From an uncultured Spirochaetota bacterium (lineage in GTDB: Bacteria; Spirochaetota; Spirochaetia; SZUA-6; Fen-1364), in assembly GCA_963734545.1 (NCBI GenBank), contig CAVTHO010000009.1, positions 128,001-192,000 of the forward strand: a DNA stretch of 64,000 nucleotides, given 5' to 3'. Shown piece by piece: positions 27,587 to 34,119 of the stretch; the first letter of the stretch is position 1, and the number at the start of each line of letters is the position of its first letter. The notes under the pieces are model-generated. The model was not told the DNA's origin. It saw only the letters and a program-made list of their open reading frames with translations, and searched no databases. The translations under genes and the position numbers were made by a program.

Positions 27587-28216
27587 CTACAGCGAGCGGC
27601 AGAACCGGACCATCTCCCGAACCGCCTCGGCCATGTTCTGCGCGTACGTGCGGCCTGAGCTCTTGCGCGGCTTGAACGAGTGGTCCCCGTCTTCCAGATA
27701 TGCCACCCGAATCGCGGCAGACAGCGTGTAGCCGGCAATCTCCTCCCGGGTCCCGAGCGTATCCCGGGTGCCCTGAAGGATAAGCGTGGGGGTCTTGAGA
27801 TCCTTCAGGTGCGCCACTCGAAGACTGGCCGGTCTTCCCGCCGGATGAAACGGGTAGCCCAGGCAGACCAGACCTTTCACACCGAGCCCGTCCGCCACCA
27901 TGCTGGCAATCCGTCCACCCATCGACCTTCCGCCAATCACCAGCTCTGACGGCGAGCCGAGCTGATCCACGACGCCGGCCCAGCAATCCTGCAGCACCTT
28001 CGGCGCATCAGGGGCGGTTCTCCTGCCCGTCTTTCGAAACTCCTGCATGTAGGGGAACTCGAACCTGATCACTTGAATGGACTCACCGACCAGCGCGTGC
28101 GCCATTTCTTCCATGGGCGGAGAGTCCATGAGCGACCCGGCTCCGTGCGCAAGAACCACGCGCAGCCAGGGCTTCCCGGCTTCCGGGGTGTCGATCAGCA
28201 AAGGTACAGTACTCAC
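27587..28216 (-). CDS. Alpha/beta hydrolase (KANL3/Tex30-like)
   Basis: GTG start with GGAGG RBS; 'LAHGAG', 'GGRSMGGR', 'LGYPFHP', 'QGTRD', 'GDHS'. Confidence 0.88.
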   Translation of the reverse strand: MSTVPLLIDTPEAGKPWLRVVLAHGAGSLMDSPPMEEMAHALVGESIQVIRFEFPYMQEFRKTGRRTAPDAPKVLQDCWAGVVDQLGSPSELVIGGRSMGGRIASMVADGLGVKGLVCLGYPFHPAGRPASLRVAHLKDLKTPTLILQGTRDTLGTREEIAGYTLSAAIRVAYLEDGDHSFKPRKSSGRTYAQNMAEAVREMVRFCRSL

Positions 28217-28280
28217 GCAGCCTCCTCCGCGCCTATGGCCCCGGTGCCCGCAGTCACTTACATTGGACTGGGAAACAGGG

Positions 28281-30245
28281 ATGGCTATTGAAGAATATCG
28301 CCGCAAAAGAGACTTCAGCAAAACACCCGAACCCGAACCGGGAAAGCTGGACGTCGGGGGAAACAGGTTCGTCGTCCACCGGCACGAGGCGCGCAACCTC
28401 CACTATGATCTGCGGATCCAGGCGGGAGGGGTCCTGTCCTCCTGGGCCGTGCCGAAAGGATTCTCATACGATCCGGTGGACAAGAGGCTCGCGGTAAGGA
28501 CCGAGGATCATCCGCTCGAGTACACGAGCTTCGAGGGGGCCATTCCGCGCGGCCAGTACGGCGCCGGTACGATGCGCATCTGGGACGTCGGGGAATACGA
28601 GGTGCGGAAAGCCCCCGACATCCATAGAGCAATCGAGAAGGGAGAAATCAAGCTCGAGCTGCGGGGCCGGCGATTGCGCGGGGAATGGCACATGGTGCGC
28701 ACCAAGGGGGGCGAAGGCAGGGACTGGCTGCTTTTCAAGGCCCGGGATCGCTACGCCGGGTCCGGTAGCGACTTGTTCGGAGGCGCGGACATGAGCCGGG
28801 CAATCCAGAGACCGCCGCTCGGCAGGATTGCCCGAATGGAAGCCTCGCCCTGGCCGCTGCCCTTCGATGACCCGGACTGGCTTTTTGAACCGGCGCTGGC
28901 AGGGAAGCGCGTGCGCGCGTCGATCGACGGCCCTTCGGTCAGCATCCGGGCCGGGGCGGAAGACCTTGCCCCGGAGCTGCCGGCCGTTGTGGCGGATCTG
29001 GGGAAAATACGCGCGGAGACGCTGCTCTTCGATGGTGTTGTCGTCACGGGCGAATCAGCGCCTGTTCTGTACGTCTTTGACGTGCTCTACGCCGAAGAAT
29101 GGGACCTGAGGCAGCTCGCGCTCCGGGAGCGCAAGGCCGTCCTCCGTTCGCTCCTGCCGGACCTGAAATGCGTATTCCGGGTCGACCCGGTGGCCGAGCG
29201 CGGCTCGGCGCTCGCACAGGCAGCCGCCGAATCGGGGCTGTCGGCGATTCTGGCCAAGCGCGCGTCGAGCAGATATCAGGCAGGACTCTCGGAGGACTGG
29301 CGGCACATACCGGTTACCGCGGCAAAGACCCGGAACCAGGCCAGGAAGCCTCCCCGCCCGGCCGAGTTTGCAATAACGAATCCCCGCAAGGTGTACTGGC
29401 CCGAGCAGGGATACACGAAAGGGGACCTGCTGGCCTACTACGAGCTGACCGCGGGCTGGCTCCTCCCTTACCTCAAGGACCGCCCCCTGCACATGTACAG
29501 GTGGCCGGATGGAATACGGGGCAAGTCGTTCTATCAGAAGCAGCTCCCCGAGGGAATTCCCGACTGGATCGAGACGGTGGATGTCGCCAAGGCTGGCGAG
29601 GAGCCGACGCACTACATCGTCTGCAACGACCGAAGGACGCTGCTGACCCTCGTGAACCTCGGGACCATAGACATTCATCCCTGGCTTTCCCGCAGGGGCA
29701 GCCTCGATTCTCCGGACTGGGCGATCCTCGACCTGGACCCCAAGGAGGCTCCATTCTCGAATGTGATCAAGGTGGCGCGCGTCGTCGGCAAGCTCCTGCG
29801 GGGGCTCGGCCTCGAGGCCTACCTGAAGACTTCCGGCTCCACCGGGCTGCACGTCTGCATCCCGTTGAAGCCCGGCTACACCTACGAGCAGAGCCGCATG
29901 TTCTGCGAGGCCGTTGCGCGGCTCGTTGTGCGGGACCATGGTGACATCGCGACCGTGGAGCGCGTCATGAGCCGTCGCGGGGGCCGGGTCTACGTGGATT
30001 TCCTTCAGAACCGAAGGGAGCAGACGGTCGTCCCGCCGTACGTGGTGCGGCCGGTGGAAGCTGCGTCGGTCTCGATGCCGCTCGCCTGGGACGAGCTCGA
30101 AGGGGAGCTGCGCATCGAGGACTTCACGCTGGCCACGGCACCCGCGCGCATCGAGAAGACGGGAGACCTTTTTCGCACTGCCCTCGGCAAGGGGCAGGAT
30201 CTTGCGGGGGCCATCGAAGCCCTGGCGCGTTCCCTCGAGGCCTGA
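28281..30245 (+). CDS. ligD: LigD-type NHEJ protein: phosphoesterase + degenerate ligase domain + primase-polymerase
   Basis: PE: 'HRHEARNLHYDLRI', 'SWAVPKG', 'RTEDHPLEY'. Pol: 'YTKGDLLAYY', 'RWPDG', 'LDLDP', 'KTSGSTGLHV'. Middle domain has EPALAGKR in place of ExKxDGxR. Confidence 0.9.
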   Translation: MAIEEYRRKRDFSKTPEPEPGKLDVGGNRFVVHRHEARNLHYDLRIQAGGVLSSWAVPKGFSYDPVDKRLAVRTEDHPLEYTSFEGAIPRGQYGAGTMRIWDVGEYEVRKAPDIHRAIEKGEIKLELRGRRLRGEWHMVRTKGGEGRDWLLFKARDRYAGSGSDLFGGADMSRAIQRPPLGRIARMEASPWPLPFDDPDWLFEPALAGKRVRASIDGPSVSIRAGAEDLAPELPAVVADLGKIRAETLLFDGVVVTGESAPVLYVFDVLYAEEWDLRQLALRERKAVLRSLLPDLKCVFRVDPVAERGSALAQAAAESGLSAILAKRASSRYQAGLSEDWRHIPVTAAKTRNQARKPPRPAEFAITNPRKVYWPEQGYTKGDLLAYYELTAGWLLPYLKDRPLHMYRWPDGIRGKSFYQKQLPEGIPDWIETVDVAKAGEEPTHYIVCNDRRTLLTLVNLGTIDIHPWLSRRGSLDSPDWAILDLDPKEAPFSNVIKVARVVGKLLRGLGLEAYLKTSGSTGLHVCIPLKPGYTYEQSRMFCEAVARLVVRDHGDIATVERVMSRRGGRVYVDFLQNRREQTVVPPYVVRPVEAASVSMPLAWDELEGELRIEDFTLATAPARIEKTGDLFRTALGKGQDLAGAIEALARSLEA

Positions 30246-30262
30246 GCCCGGCCCGGACCGGG

Positions 30263-31474
30263 TCAGTCGTCCGGATCGTCCCTCCCCTTGTACCTGATCA
30301 GGGTGAGGTGCATCTCGCTAGGAAACGCTTTGAGGCATTCCGCTCGATGAGGGAGCGCCTTGTCGTGCTGACCCGTGCGGGAGAATATGATTGCGAGATT
30401 GCAGTGCGCATCCGGATAGCGGGGCTCGAGGGACAGCGCGGTCTGGTAGGCATGGATCCCCTCGTCATGCTTGCCAATTGCCACCAGGCAATTGCCCAGA
30501 TTGTTCCACGCCTCCGCGAAACCACGATCGGCATCGATAGCCTGCAGGTAACGCTCCGCCGCGTCCGCCTCGCGTCCCAGCTCGTAGAGAACATTTCCGA
30601 GGTTGAAGAGCGTTTCCGGATCTGGTTCCGCTTCGAGGGCCCGGCGGTACGCATCCGCTGCCCGCTGAAGATCGCCGCGCTCCTCGGCCTCCACCGCCTC
30701 GGAAAACCACCGGCTGTGGCTCTGGTCGCCTTCCGGGAAGATGGACACGCGGGGAGATGTCATCTCCCGCTCCGTGTCGAAATCCATGAGCCTCTGGCCG
30801 CTGGGCTCGGCCCAGCCTCCATCCAGCAGCCGGATGCGCAGCCCGCTGTCATACGCCTCGAGACGCCCGGCAATCTGTTCTCCATCCGGCACCCACTGGG
30901 CGATCTCGGAGAGGCTCTGGCGCAGCAGCGCGGTGGAGACTCCGGATGCCGTCAGCCGGCCGAGGTTGCGCGCAAGCAGGATGTCCTTGAACTCGAACCA
31001 GGCCAGCCGATTGGCCACGCGCGCGGGAGGGAGCAGCCCTCGGCGCATCCAGCTGCGGACCACGGAAAGGGGCTCGTCCACGATGCGGCCCACCTGGGCC
31101 GCGGTGTACATTCGGGAGATATCGCTCAATTCTCCTTCGGCGCCGATCAAGGCCAGGAACTCGGCCTCGTCCACCAGCCGTATGGGTGCCCCCTGTTTCT
31201 TCAGCTCGCGGAAGCGCAGCATGTTGCGCGCAATACCCCCGTCCGGCGTGAAGTGCCCCGTTGCCTGGCCCGCTATGAGAAGCTCCGTGGTGGTCCCTGG
31301 CTCGCGCACGGGGCGGCCGCCGGCCCGGGTGATCCGCTGGACCGCCTCTGCCCTGTCCATGGAGACCAGACGACCGGTGAGCGCCACTTCCCTGCCGGCG
31401 AGCGATTCCTGAGGCGGCACTTTTTCCCTGCGCGGTACCCCGCGCATTTCTTCTTCCGTCACGACGTCAGGCAT
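30263..31474 (-). CDS. BRCT + MerR-like HTH + TPR protein
   Basis: LigA-like BRCT 'LAGREVALTGRLVSMDRAEAVQRITRAGG..IRLVDEAEFLALI'; HTH 'YTAAQVGRIV..VVRSWMRRGLL'; TPRs 'LFNLGNVLYELG', 'AWNNLGNCL', 'AHCNLA'. Confidence 0.82.
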   Translation of the reverse strand: MPDVVTEEEMRGVPRREKVPPQESLAGREVALTGRLVSMDRAEAVQRITRAGGRPVREPGTTTELLIAGQATGHFTPDGGIARNMLRFRELKKQGAPIRLVDEAEFLALIGAEGELSDISRMYTAAQVGRIVDEPLSVVRSWMRRGLLPPARVANRLAWFEFKDILLARNLGRLTASGVSTALLRQSLSEIAQWVPDGEQIAGRLEAYDSGLRIRLLDGGWAEPSGQRLMDFDTEREMTSPRVSIFPEGDQSHSRWFSEAVEAEERGDLQRAADAYRRALEAEPDPETLFNLGNVLYELGREADAAERYLQAIDADRGFAEAWNNLGNCLVAIGKHDEGIHAYQTALSLEPRYPDAHCNLAIIFSRTGQHDKALPHRAECLKAFPSEMHLTLIRYKGRDDPDD

Positions 31475-32363
31475 CCAGAAGCCCCTCGAACACGGGTGCG
31501 CGAAGCAATCCCGCTGAGGTGAGCTCAGCGAAGCTTACCGCGCAGAACAGGCCCGGCTCAACCCACCTCGCGCGTTCAGGGCAGGACACGAGCGGCGTGT
31601 CTCTCGGCCGCTGTCTCAGGAGCGTGTTGATCCTTTCGCGGACCCCTTCGGTGAAGCCGCCCCCCACTCTCCCGACATAGCGAAGCGCACCTTCCTGCTC
31701 TCCGGGAAGGCCGTTGCTCGCCACGAGCAGGCTCTGGAAGTCATCGCCATCCTTCTCGATATATCCGATGATGGCAACGTGGACCTGGAGCCGCCGCTTG
31801 AACTTCACCCAGGCGCCGTTGCGCTTTCCCGCCGCGTATGTGCTGGAGAGGCGCTTTGCCACGACTCCTTCAAGGCCCTGCTCGCAGGCCATCCGGTACA
31901 GCATCTTTCCTTTGGCGCGGACCCCTTCTGAAAGAATCACGCCCGGACACGGGGAATCCTTCATGATCTCTTCGAGGACCCCGCGCCTTTCGGAGAACGG
32001 CGCGTCGAGCAGGGAGCGGGACGCGCTGTAGAGGACGTCAAACACGACAAAGCTGACCGGCCAGGCGCCGGCACCGTGTCTGCTTTGAAGGACGAGCTCG
32101 AAATCAGGCTTGCCGTCGCGAAGAACAACCAGCTCCCCGTCCAGGACGAGGCCGTCGGGGAGCGCGGCCAGGCCGGCAAGGGACGGGTAGCGCGCGGTGA
32201 TATCCACCCCGTTGCGGCTCACAAGGCGATGCGCGCCGCGCTCCACCAGGGCCTGCGTGCGGATGCCGTCCCACTTGAACTCGAAGAAATGGGCGTCCGA
32301 ATCGAATGGCTGGCCGAGGACGGCGAGCATGGGGGGCACGAACCGGGGAAGCGCCTTATCCAA
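31467..32363 (-). CDS. Stand-alone ATP-dependent DNA ligase (LigD-ligase/LigC-like)
   Basis: Probable TTG start overlapping the Ku stop; intact 'EFKWDGIR', 'LDGELV', 'FDVL', 'EGVVAK', 'WVKFK' and OB domain 'GRVGGGF..LRAPVF'. Confidence 0.88.
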   Translation of the reverse strand: MDKALPRFVPPMLAVLGQPFDSDAHFFEFKWDGIRTQALVERGAHRLVSRNGVDITARYPSLAGLAALPDGLVLDGELVVLRDGKPDFELVLQSRHGAGAWPVSFVVFDVLYSASRSLLDAPFSERRGVLEEIMKDSPCPGVILSEGVRAKGKMLYRMACEQGLEGVVAKRLSSTYAAGKRNGAWVKFKRRLQVHVAIIGYIEKDGDDFQSLLVASNGLPGEQEGALRYVGRVGGGFTEGVRERINTLLRQRPRDTPLVSCPERARWVEPGLFCAVSFAELTSAGLLRAPVFEGLLDA

Positions 32364-33255
32364 CCTTCTTCTTCTTGGTCGTTGCGGCTTTGGCCGGCTT
32401 GGCGCTGGGAGCCTGCTTGAGCCCCGCCTTTGCCGCCTGCTTGTCCTCCACCGTTGCCTGCGCGCCGCTGGCTGCCTGGGCCTCTGCCACGCTGCGCTTG
32501 AGGGCCTCCATGAGATTGATGATCTTCGGCTCCTCGGGGTCACGGATCTGGACGACTTCCTTCCCCTCGATCTTCATCTGGATCAGCTTTGTCAGCTTTT
32601 CCTTGTACACGTCGTGATACTTTGAAAAGTCGAAGCTCTTGATCATCGAGGCTTTGATGAGCGTGTCCGCCAGGGACATTTCCGCATCGGACACTTCCGT
32701 TTCAGTGATCTCGTCCTTGAACGCGGAGGCGGCCTTCACCTCGTCCTTCCGGTTCAGAACGGTCATGGCCAGCACCCCGTCTATCGGCCGCAGCATGACC
32801 ACCTGCTCTTTCTGGGAGATGACCACCTCGGCCATGGCGCACACCTGGTTCGCCAGCATGCCCTTCAGCAGAAGGTTGTACGGTTTCTGGCCCACGGGCC
32901 CGTCCGGCGTCAGGAAGTAGGTCCGGCCGCCCAGGTAGATCGTGCTGAGGTCCTCCGGCTTGATGAACCCGTCTATCCGGATGGACTTGTCGCTCTCGGT
33001 GCGCAGCTTGTCGATCTCATCCTCGTCGATGATGACATACTGCCCTTTCGAGTACTCGTAGCCCTTGACGATCTCCTCGCTGCTGACTTCACCAACCTCA
33101 GGGGCGAACTTCTTGTACTGGATCCGCGTGTGGGTTTTTGCGTGAAGCTGGTGGAGCGTGATGTCGCTCCCGGTCGACGTGGACGTATATGCCTTGACTG
33201 GCACTGAAACCAGGCTGAGCTTCAAGAACCCCTTCCAACTGGCATGGGCTGCCAT
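32356..33255 (-). CDS. ku: Ku DNA end-binding protein
   Basis: 'WKGFLKLSLVSVPVKAY', 'IVKGYEY', 'INLMEALKRS', basic Lys/Ala-rich tail. Confidence 0.95.
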   Translation of the reverse strand: MAAHASWKGFLKLSLVSVPVKAYTSTSTGSDITLHQLHAKTHTRIQYKKFAPEVGEVSSEEIVKGYEYSKGQYVIIDEDEIDKLRTESDKSIRIDGFIKPEDLSTIYLGGRTYFLTPDGPVGQKPYNLLLKGMLANQVCAMAEVVISQKEQVVMLRPIDGVLAMTVLNRKDEVKAASAFKDEITETEVSDAEMSLADTLIKASMIKSFDFSKYHDVYKEKLTKLIQMKIEGKEVVQIRDPEEPKIINLMEALKRSVAEAQAASGAQATVEDKQAAKAGLKQAPSAKPAKAATTKKKKVG

Positions 33256-33454
33256 GAACGCCTCCTCGTACTGCCGTCACAGCGGGATGGGACACGGTCG
33301 TCGGCTCCCCGAAGCGGCCATACCTTCCCAATTCACTAAGGTATTGTCGGCATATTTCGAAGTCAACTTCCTGGGACCGGGAAGCGCCTGGCGCGCATGT
33401 GTGCACACACGGAGGCGAATACAGGGGCAGGCCCGCACGAGAAATCCAGGATTC

Positions 33455-33494
33455 TTGACACATAAGGTAGGAATTCATACGATATTGGTATGAA
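33455..33494 (+). promoter_or_regulatory. vapBC promoter with overlapping operator palindrome
   Basis: TTGACA-N17-TACGAT, ATG 6 nt downstream; TTCATAC-N7-GTATGAA inverted repeat (33474-33494). Confidence 0.75.
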
Positions 33495-33711
33495 AACAAC
33501 GGTCTCGGAAAAGGGCCAGGTCACCATCCCGAAGGCAATTCGGGACAAGCTGGGTCTCCGGCCCGGTACAGTCCTGGACTTCGATGCAATAGAGGGGAAG
33601 TTGATAGGAGTGAAAAAGGAGCAGGATGACCGCATCGGCCGATGGCTCGGCAAGGGATCCCTTCCCGGCGCGCTTTCCGTGGACGACTATCTGCGGCGGA
33701 TCCGCGGATGA
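33490..33711 (+). CDS. vapB: AbrB/MazE/SpoVT-family antitoxin
   Basis: 'VSEKGQVTIPKAIRDKLGLRPG' AbrB signature. Confidence 0.9.
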   Translation: MKTTVSEKGQVTIPKAIRDKLGLRPGTVLDFDAIEGKLIGVKKEQDDRIGRWLGKGSLPGALSVDDYLRRIRG

Positions 33712-34119
33712 TCACCGCAGTGGACAGCTCCGTCATCCTTGACGTGTTGACCGGGGACCAGGGCAATACGTCTGCGAGCCTCGCCGCTCTGCGAAAAGCT
33801 TCGCGGGAAGGCCGGTTGATTGTCAGCGAGAGTGTGGTTGCCGAGGTTCGGCCGGTATTTGAATCCAATTCCCTCTTCGAGGAGTTTCTGGGGGACTGGG
33901 GCCTGGAGTTCATGCCCTCCACGCTGCGCAGCTCGATCCGGGCGGGCGAGATGTTCCGTCAGATGCTGGCACGGAAGAAAAAGCAGGAGGGCAGGATACT
34001 GCCCGGATTTCCTTATTGGCGCGCACGCGCTCGAACACGCTGATCGATTGCTTGCCAGGGATCGGGGTTTCCTGCGCGACTACTTCACCGAGCTGGCCCT
34101 CTGGGACCCGTCGCGATAG
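33708..34119 (+). CDS. vapC: PIN-domain toxin, one frameshift near 34000
   Basis: '[12 protein letters not shown]', 'VVAEV', then in another frame '[16 protein letters not shown]'; ATGA overlap with the antitoxin. Confidence 0.85.

Follow-up and report, generated by a model that had tools for sequence, protein, structure and literature searches.

We examined a 64,000-nucleotide stretch of the genome of an uncultured Spirochaetota bacterium (hereafter, the window) that encodes Ku, a stand-alone ATP-dependent DNA ligase and, directly after them, a 403-residue protein combining a BRCT domain, a MerR-type winged helix-turn-helix (HTH) and tetratricopeptide repeats (TPR); this gene and its product are called BHT here. 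The three genes converge on a LigD-like gene (Table 1). [quoted passage not shown] The place of BHT beside ku in three bacterial phyla suggests a variant of this pathway with a further partner protein in these lineages. We propose that BHT is an accessory protein of this variant, which would be made together with Ku and would serve with it as a non-catalytic adaptor at broken DNA ends; going by the sequence, we assign this reading a probability of roughly 0.55.

The core idea of the initial annotation, that the NHEJ gene set has a conserved additional member in the BRCT/HTH/TPR gene, is strongly supported by genomic linkage and co-occurrence. One genome per species was scanned, the best 80 of 96 confirmed BHT relatives were kept, and ku was located in their loci by tblastn with the window’s proteins. 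These loci comprise 18 from Spirochaetota, 14 from Planctomycetota and 48 from Alphaproteobacteria (Xanthobacteraceae, other Hyphomicrobiales, Methylocella and similar). The annotation had named such a neighbourhood survey as a check, and homologues lying mostly away from ku/ligD as the outcome that would speak against its idea; instead, ku adjoins BHT, on the same strand and at most 1.3 kb upstream, in 69 of the 80 loci, spread over all three phyla (17/18 Spirochaetota, 6/14 Planctomycetota, 46/48 Alphaproteobacteria). Ku is encoded somewhere in the locus in 71.

The link between ku and BHT persists though gene order changes among groups. Spirochaetes have ku-lig-BHT facing ligD, most Planctomycetes have ku-BHT alone, and Alphaproteobacteria have ku-BHT-(hydrolase)-ligD; a variant order, ku-ligD-BHT, occurs in locus L077, and the cultured Ensifer adhaerens CTYH.Ch1 has ligD-ku-BHT-hydrolase, on NZ_CP118611.1. 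The convergent layout stressed at the outset is present in the window but is only one of several gene orders. Within 23 fetched loci of relatives, the ligase gene stands directly before BHT in 21; of the other two, one has it 0.8 kb away and one, G011, lacks it. In the same loci, ku directly precedes the ligase gene in 15, is separated from it by insertions of 2.6-13 kb in five, and lies outside the fetched locus in three. The insertions hold unrelated genes, encoding an MFS transporter, an ECF sigma factor, glycosidases and methionine sulfoxide reductase.

Co-occurrence follows the same pattern. We searched for BHT, by its N-terminus, in 41 genomes (the window’s own and 40 relatives) and found it in 24. 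Ku turned up in 22 and the LigD primase-polymerase (LigD-Pol) in 23; the three sets of genomes are nearly identical and come from three families within one order. Every one of the 22 genomes with Ku also has BHT, Ku is missing from each of the 17 that lack BHT, and the two BHT-positive genomes without a Ku match are assemblies of 410 and 230 contigs. A Ku tree (a quick IQ-TREE run under LG+G4, with 77 rows of a Ku alignment cut to the first 200 residues) places 25 of the 26 alphaproteobacterial BHT-linked Ku proteins in one clade (SH-aLRT 99), apart from the unlinked Ku of the same family. The BHT-linked Ku of Spirochaetes and Planctomycetes form a second clade (SH-aLRT 99), with the Spirochaetes nested inside. 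The two clades branch from a polytomy, and L159, also a linked Ku, lies outside both. Particular Ku lineages are thus marked by BHT and, as far as the sequences tell, a transfer of the block between phyla is probable.

The family is large and spread over three phyla. A region-limited search returned 99 proteins, nearly all full length and of similar architecture, from metagenome-assembled genomes of Spirochaetia, and a profile search of 1.84 billion representatives gave 479 clusters (50% identity) at E ≤1e-30 and 2707 at E ≤1e-10. Shorter proteins of 170-270 residues, with BRCT and MerR_1 and without TPR, form protein-atlas clusters of their own, mostly from Planctomycetota.

Gene arrangement at the nucleotide level points to joint expression. 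In the window, GAGGAGG precedes the ku ATG, the ku stop TAA (32356-32358) and the ligase TTG overlap by 8 nt, the ligase TGA and the BHT ATG overlap by the 8 nt ATGCCTGA, and the BHT stop (30263) lies 17 nt from the convergent ligD stop (30245). Given these overlaps, the promoter-like site upstream of ku and the opposite direction of the gene beyond it, the three genes look like one transcription unit. On re-reading the window, the coordinates of the initial annotation, its two 8-nt overlaps and its 17-nt distance to the ligD stop all hold. The ligase start that it had assumed, an in-frame TTG at 32363 within the full open reading frame 31467-32543, recurs with the same overlap in nine of ten relatives. 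Its ligD start, ATG 28281, is the likely one; a longer frame, opening at 28077, reaches into the hydrolase gene that diverges from ligD.

Translational coupling, also proposed at that stage, is supported at both junctions. The ligase TTG lies 8 nt inside ku, after the purine-rich AAGAAGAAGAAGG of the Ku Lys tail, in those nine relatives, which span three families; the tenth (L064) has a 4-nt TTGA overlap. At the ligase/BHT junction, three of 16 loci have an 8-nt overlap, three a 4-nt overlap and ten a gap of 2-12 nt, so that in all 16 the two genes overlap or lie no more than 12 nt apart. In Alphaproteobacteria, where BHT follows ku itself, 35 of 46 loci (L084-L131) have a CTG of the BHT frame that shares bases with the ku end CGC TGA (as CTGA), with AAGAGGAAG, the codons of the Ku KRK, 8 nt upstream of this CTG. 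Between the upstream in-frame stop and the first conserved BRCT strand, 23 of the 46 loci have no ATG, GTG or TTG. The simplest reading is that alphaproteobacterial BHT is probably translated from the CTG by re-initiation after ku termination. The alternative is a fusion by -1 frameshift, against which L088 has an in-frame stop five codons upstream. A Ku-BHT fusion through a single open reading frame was rejected: the long frames that cross the junction in seven alphaproteobacterial loci lie in another frame than ku. Under either reading of the junction, BHT synthesis would be tied to that of Ku. Lying directly 3' of ku or ku-lig in three phyla, with overlapping or near-abutting codons, the BHT gene appears to be inherited and expressed with ku.

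Profiles and fold searches with AlphaFold2 (AF2) models bear out the domain make-up first read from the letters of the 403-residue gene: BHT combines a BRCT domain, which falls in the RFC1/LigA class, with a MerR-type winged HTH and TPR. AF2 was run on a 59-sequence alignment for the full protein (mean pLDDT 85), and residues 1-240 were folded separately (mean pLDDT 80.6) because Foldseek with the whole 403-residue model gave TPR proteins only. The whole architecture is kept across the 59 aligned sequences, from three phyla.

The initial annotation had staked its idea on the N-terminal domain being a BRCT by profile search. The Pfam BRCT model alone is non-significant there (E 0.15; 12.7 bits, cut-off 21.3), while other profiles and the fold agree on a BRCT. 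The BRCT ends of NCBIfam models match residues 22-110 (PRK06195, an exonuclease-BRCT model, 8e-8; LigA, 3e-4), and a profile of 46 BHT family members finds the BRCT domains of RFC1 (1.2e-7) and E. coli LigA (1.9e-7) in the PDB. With residues 22-115, Foldseek ranks LigA (1e-4) and RFC1 BRCT (3.5e-4) first, and in the VIA fold search several BRCT domains align over 75-81 residues at Z 8.4-8.7. The AF2 models have the beta-alpha-beta-beta-alpha-beta-alpha BRCT fold (strands 29-32, 54-56, 65-68 and 99-102; helices 41-50, 83-93 and 103-109). RFC1 (p140) and LigA BRCT are thus the best matches in both sequence and fold. In contrast to theirs, the BRCT of BHT sits on a non-enzymatic protein and has a conserved insert (GWPL..DG) between beta3 and alpha2. 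BRCT domains of this class sit on DNA at 5' ends and nicks, according to the available parts of PMC9293004 and PMC10386641, and titles of PDB entries among the Foldseek matches also show them on DNA. [quoted passage not shown] In BHT, the N-terminal alignment (A3) shows no variation at G34, R35 and M39, and every non-gap row of the full-length alignment has these residues too, with T in place of S38 in one row. The T33-G34 pair is found in 43 of the 59 sequences, with a gap in two rows (and one untallied), and position 61 is basic in 21/21 alphaproteobacterial and 12/13 Planctomycete sequences.

The second domain opens another possibility, that BHT is a transcription factor of the NHEJ operon, its MerR-type HTH binding an operator while it senses breaks through the BRCT or a peptide or protein signal through the TPR. 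The HTH has a MerR_1 match at 1.5e-6, and residues 121-186 match DNA-bound MerR N-domains in the VIA search at Z 9-10 (TipAL N-domain, Z 10.2, rmsd 1.5 Å over 65 residues). It is very basic in Spirochaete members (net charge +8.3), with R140, W142 and R144 of the recognition helix present in 25 of 25. Regulators often sit within the operon that they control, and source names, where given, call BHT relatives “tetratricopeptide repeat protein” or “MerR regulator”, as do automatic cluster names. MerR regulators, whose winged HTH fold BHT shares, dimerise through a long antiparallel coiled-coil helix, which is followed by an effector-binding region. The HTH of BHT, by contrast, is internal, with no MerR-type effector domain and, in the AF2 models, no long C-terminal coiled-coil: after the wing come three short helices (162-176, 181-194 and 198-204) and then the short strands of a small beta unit, at pLDDT 79-91. 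The recognition-helix positions are E/D, L and M, acidic or hydrophobic, in Alphaproteobacteria, where the net charge of the HTH is only about +2 (+2.1). Because recognition helix and charge differ between phyla, sequence-specific DNA reading is not conserved in the family.

The ku promoter speaks to the same question. MerR-activated promoters have an over-long spacer of 19-20 nt that carries the operator. Upstream of ku, the sole promoter tested, we found a promoter-like pair, TTGAC(T/A) and TA(G/C)NNT, in 18 of the 23 upstream regions examined, which come from the window and 22 other loci, across families and with a spacer of 17-18 nt (17 nt in the window) whose sequence is neither conserved nor palindromic. 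The leaders that follow run from 6 to 100 nt, and several share a GGGAGGG box and a GC-rich hairpin. Rfam gave no match at E ≤1 in the region 33200-33560 upstream of ku, and the pattern TTGAC-N17-19-TAGCTT has no match elsewhere in the window. BHT is, moreover, apparently translationally coupled behind ku, not separately expressed. Together, the coupling to ku, the missing dimerisation helix, the 17-nt spacer and the recognition helix that varies between phyla lean towards a partner protein, none of them being decisive, and we consider the regulator unlikely.

The third domain offers a route to Ku. Besides TPR_1, many TPR-related Pfam models match the C-terminus of BHT, and Foldseek aligns it with consensus TPR proteins at 1e-8 (target TM 0.93). 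This domain is strongly acidic in all three phyla (mean net charge -13, -13 and -8, the Spirochaete value being -13). The Ku tails are basic: in all 29 BHT-linked Ku proteins examined, the last 45 residues hold 8-15 Lys and Arg. From the class of the BRCT, the non-conserved reading by the HTH, and the pairing of acidic TPR with basic Ku tails, we propose that BHT is most likely an adaptor that binds DNA ends and the Ku tail. The BRCT, whose relatives bind 5' ends and nicks, would contact the DNA end, as would the very basic HTH of the Spirochaete members. The acidic TPR domain would hold a basic peptide, for which the Lys/Arg-rich C-terminal tail of Ku is the best candidate. BHT would thereby tether or position the separate ligase and the phosphoesterase-polymerase (PE-Pol) enzyme at Ku-bound ends.

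The same charge match, kept across three phyla, could mean instead that BHT modulates Ku, as a chaperone, a loader or unloader, or an inhibitor whose acidic TPR masks the basic tail and limits binding or threading until a break occurs. The constant partner gene across phyla is ku, not the ligase gene or ligD, which would fit such a role. A MerR fold can also act by protein binding alone, as in CbpM with the CbpA J-domain (3ucs, Z 9.2, rmsd 7.2 Å). The charge match is a correlation only, and a pure tail mask would need no BRCT of a DNA-binding class. The data here do not separate modulation from the adaptor, and we hold modulation to be a good deal less probable than even the regulator.

An adaptor may matter more in the window’s lineage than elsewhere, as the ligase module of LigD would be dead there and a ligase is encoded between ku and BHT. 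The LigD-like gene has a 3'-phosphoesterase (PE) domain (residues 72-224), a primase-polymerase (Pol) domain (432-700) and, between them, an 80-140 residue ligase remnant, which matches only positions 98-181 of a 302-position ligase profile and has no OB domain. Motif I, EFKWDG in the stand-alone ligase, aligns to EPALAG in the remnant, so that the adenylated lysine is lost. The alignment covers this position in 19 Spirochaete rows, from the window and 18 loci (three of the loci come from genomes fetched a second time), and the lysine is missing in every one of them, as it is in one Planctomycete locus (L071). Every stand-alone ligase aligned keeps KWDG or KGDG; alphaproteobacterial LigD proteins keep KxDG or KHNG. 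By these residues, the window’s LigD is incomplete, with a ligase module predicted to be catalytically dead in this lineage. From the lost lysine in LigD and the intact motif of the stand-alone enzyme, ligation has therefore moved to the separate ligase here. Where the initial annotation had the operon “converging on LigD”, the convergent gene does carry PE and Pol but is an incomplete LigD, with neither an OB domain nor the lysine of motif I in its ligase part. It offers a naturally occurring example of LigD in which the ligase module has turned into a pseudo-enzyme.

Several observations weigh against the adaptor. BHT lacks an adjacent ku in 6 of the 14 Planctomycete loci, in Spirochaete G011 and in alphaproteobacterial L110; its neighbours there are unrelated genes, save in L110, which keeps ligD. 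Of the nine loci without any ku, one starts at a contig end and cannot be judged, five belong to genomes with an intact Ku elsewhere, one to a genome with a broken Ku and two to genomes, G042 and G011, in which a genome-wide search found none. BHT is also not a general requirement for NHEJ, because only about 1 in 6 Ku-positive genomes of one sampled alphaproteobacterial family carry it (81 genomes, Ku in 71 and BHT in at least 11, the BHT count being a lower bound because no more than 36 first-look candidates per genome were scored), though all 11 of these BHT genes adjoin a ku. The phosphate pocket of the BRCT is kept in part only: the T-G pair is A-G in 13 of the 59 sequences, and the basic residue at position 61, that of the T/S-x-K motif (PMC10386641, available part), is not the common residue in the Spirochaete group. 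HTH plus TPR is, furthermore, a known regulator architecture, that of the RRNPP type, in which a DNA-binding-type HTH is likewise paired with a peptide-binding-type TPR. RRNPP regulators have an N-terminal XRE-type HTH and no BRCT, and the searches made here showed no sequence relation of BHT to them. Locus counts overstate independence, because the genomes of one phylum are kin to each other and the 80 loci include several from genomes that are also among the 41 relatives; for the same reasons, our argument draws its weight from the three phyla and the several gene orders and not from raw counts.

The eight loci that carry BHT without an adjacent ku could also be taken to mean that the linkage is hitch-hiking, with BHT serving some other process and travelling with ku on a mobile or conserved segment, and the nesting of Spirochaete Ku within Planctomycete Ku does suggest block transfer. 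Against this, ku and BHT remain linked through no fewer than five gene orders across three phyla, lig and BHT stay together in relatives despite the unrelated insertions around them, and presence or absence tracks Ku exactly in the 41 genomes, bar the two fragmented assemblies. Hitch-hiking is in our view very improbable.

A stronger form of the adaptor reading would make BHT a third core component of a widespread variant of NHEJ in bacteria, the counterpart in role of XRCC1/XRCC4-type scaffolds: its BRCT would read the 5' end, its TPR would clamp the Ku tail, and it would be needed for efficient joining and would have allowed LigD to split. This is conceivable, and we put it forward tentatively, as somewhat doubtful. 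In eukaryotes, the Lig4 BRCTs work with XRCC4, the BRCT of Pol mu/lambda with Ku-DNA, and XRCC1 as a scaffold, so that a BRCT protein is associated with Ku-dependent joining there too. Among the fold matches listed for the BHT BRCT are Lig4-XRCC4, XRCC1-Lig3 and a Pol mu complex of NHEJ, with Z ~7 or a Foldseek E of 0.02. The likeness is one of role only: unlike the eukaryotic assembly, BHT has a single BRCT, not a tandem, and no XRCC4/XLF-like domain, and there is no evidence of common descent. A complex prediction for two Ku chains and BHT residues 22-403, run with alignments, scored 0.31 against a mark of 0.32, with controls at 0.00, and we do not use it either way.

Canonical bacterial NHEJ, a Ku homodimer with a multidomain LigD, shares with the window Ku, PE, Pol and an ATP-dependent NHEJ-type ligase, clustered together; the models for these four (TIGR02772, TIGR02777, TIGR02778 and TIGR02779) all exceed their curated NCBIfam cut-offs in the window. 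It differs in that the window has the extra conserved, non-catalytic BHT gene and, in its lineage, a separate ligase and a dead LigD ligase module. Within open-access full text and bioRxiv, leaving aside supplements and subscription journals, we found no paper linking a BRCT/MerR/TPR protein to bacterial Ku or LigD. The terms BRCT and TPR do not occur in the text of PMC7719229 and PMC6379672, although the supplementary neighbourhood tables of PMC7719229 could bear on the question, and the available part of PMC10386641 describes no BRCT protein of bacterial NHEJ. Teaching and models treat NHEJ in bacteria as a minimal machine of two proteins, a premise on which structural and single-molecule studies, in the parts of them available to us, are built. 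If our reading is true, a co-translated, non-catalytic partner with a BRCT of the DNA-end type would define a large NHEJ variant with an adaptor layer. It raises the question of how, where no single LigD combines them, ligase and polymerase are recruited. The cultured carrier Ensifer adhaerens makes the role of BHT directly testable by deletion and assay.

Table 1 Features of the NHEJ locus in the window and, in the last row, of an open frame in the loci of relatives
Feature	Position	Strand	Description
ku	32356..33255	-	299 aa; Pfam Ku 3e-44; TIGR02772 255 bits (cut-off 150); basic Lys-rich C-terminal tail KKKKVG
Stand-alone ATP-dependent NHEJ-type ligase	31467..32363	-	298 aa from TTG; nucleotidyltransferase (NTase) + OB; TIGR02779 230.9 bits (cut-off 227.75)
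BHT	30263..31474	-	403 aa; BRCT, MerR-type winged HTH, small beta unit, linker, TPR
BRCT domain of BHT	31130..31411	-	residues 22-115; RFC1/LigA class
MerR-type winged HTH of BHT	30890..31114	-	residues 121-195; Pfam MerR_1 (123-189) 1.5e-6, 28.7 bits (cut-off 21.6)
TPR domain of BHT	30320..30727	-	residues 250-385, about four repeats; Pfam TPR_1 3e-22, 77.9 bits (cut-off 27.8)
LigD-like gene	28281..30245	+	3'-phosphoesterase, ligase remnant, primase-polymerase; TIGR02777 200 bits (cut-off 144); TIGR02778 248 bits (cut-off 215)
Promoter-like site 5' of ku	33338..33366	-	TTGACT, 17 nt, TACCTT; then 82-nt leader
Alpha/beta hydrolase (Abhydrolase_11)	27587..28396	-	divergent from ligD; Pfam PF20408 6e-73
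Open frame after ligD	L033:3554-6964, L042:3677-7087, L046:3529-7017, L039:10487-13960, L034:2957-5845		

The stand-alone ligase of Table 1 also matches Pfam DNA_ligase_A_M and DNA_ligase_A_C, with its motif I KWDG intact. The start of the hydrolase gene is uncertain because its longest open reading frame overlaps the 5' end of ligD. An Abhydrolase_11 (PF20408) gene travels with the set (L030-L046, L084-L129, L132): its neighbour is ligD in the window as well as in 14 of the 23 loci fetched from relatives, and it occurs in 24 of the 48 alphaproteobacterial loci. It is divergent from ligD in Spirochaetes, sits between BHT and ligD or after ligD in Alphaproteobacteria, and follows BHT in Ensifer adhaerens. 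It is possibly a fifth member of the gene set.

One exception to the unrelated character of the genes around these loci is an open frame of 962-1162 residues 3' of ligD and on its strand in five relatives, with none at this place in the window. By Pfam, the L033 and L034 frames have an RNase_H_2-type nuclease domain and the SF1 helicase domains AAA_11 and AAA_30, with AAA_12 also in L033. In two relatives, G009 (L036) and G018 (L045), the BHT homologue is split into two or three frames, and in G009 the ligase is split as well; these may be pseudogenes or assembly errors, and both relatives keep Ku and LigD-Pol. On the far side of ku in the window, and divergent from it, lies a MazE/AbrB-type antitoxin gene (33490-33711, plus strand, 73 aa, 9e-11), overlapped by an open reading frame with a weak PIN match (region 33490-34043, plus strand, E 7e-4, below the cut-off). 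The two are probably a VapBC-like pair, unrelated to the NHEJ finding.

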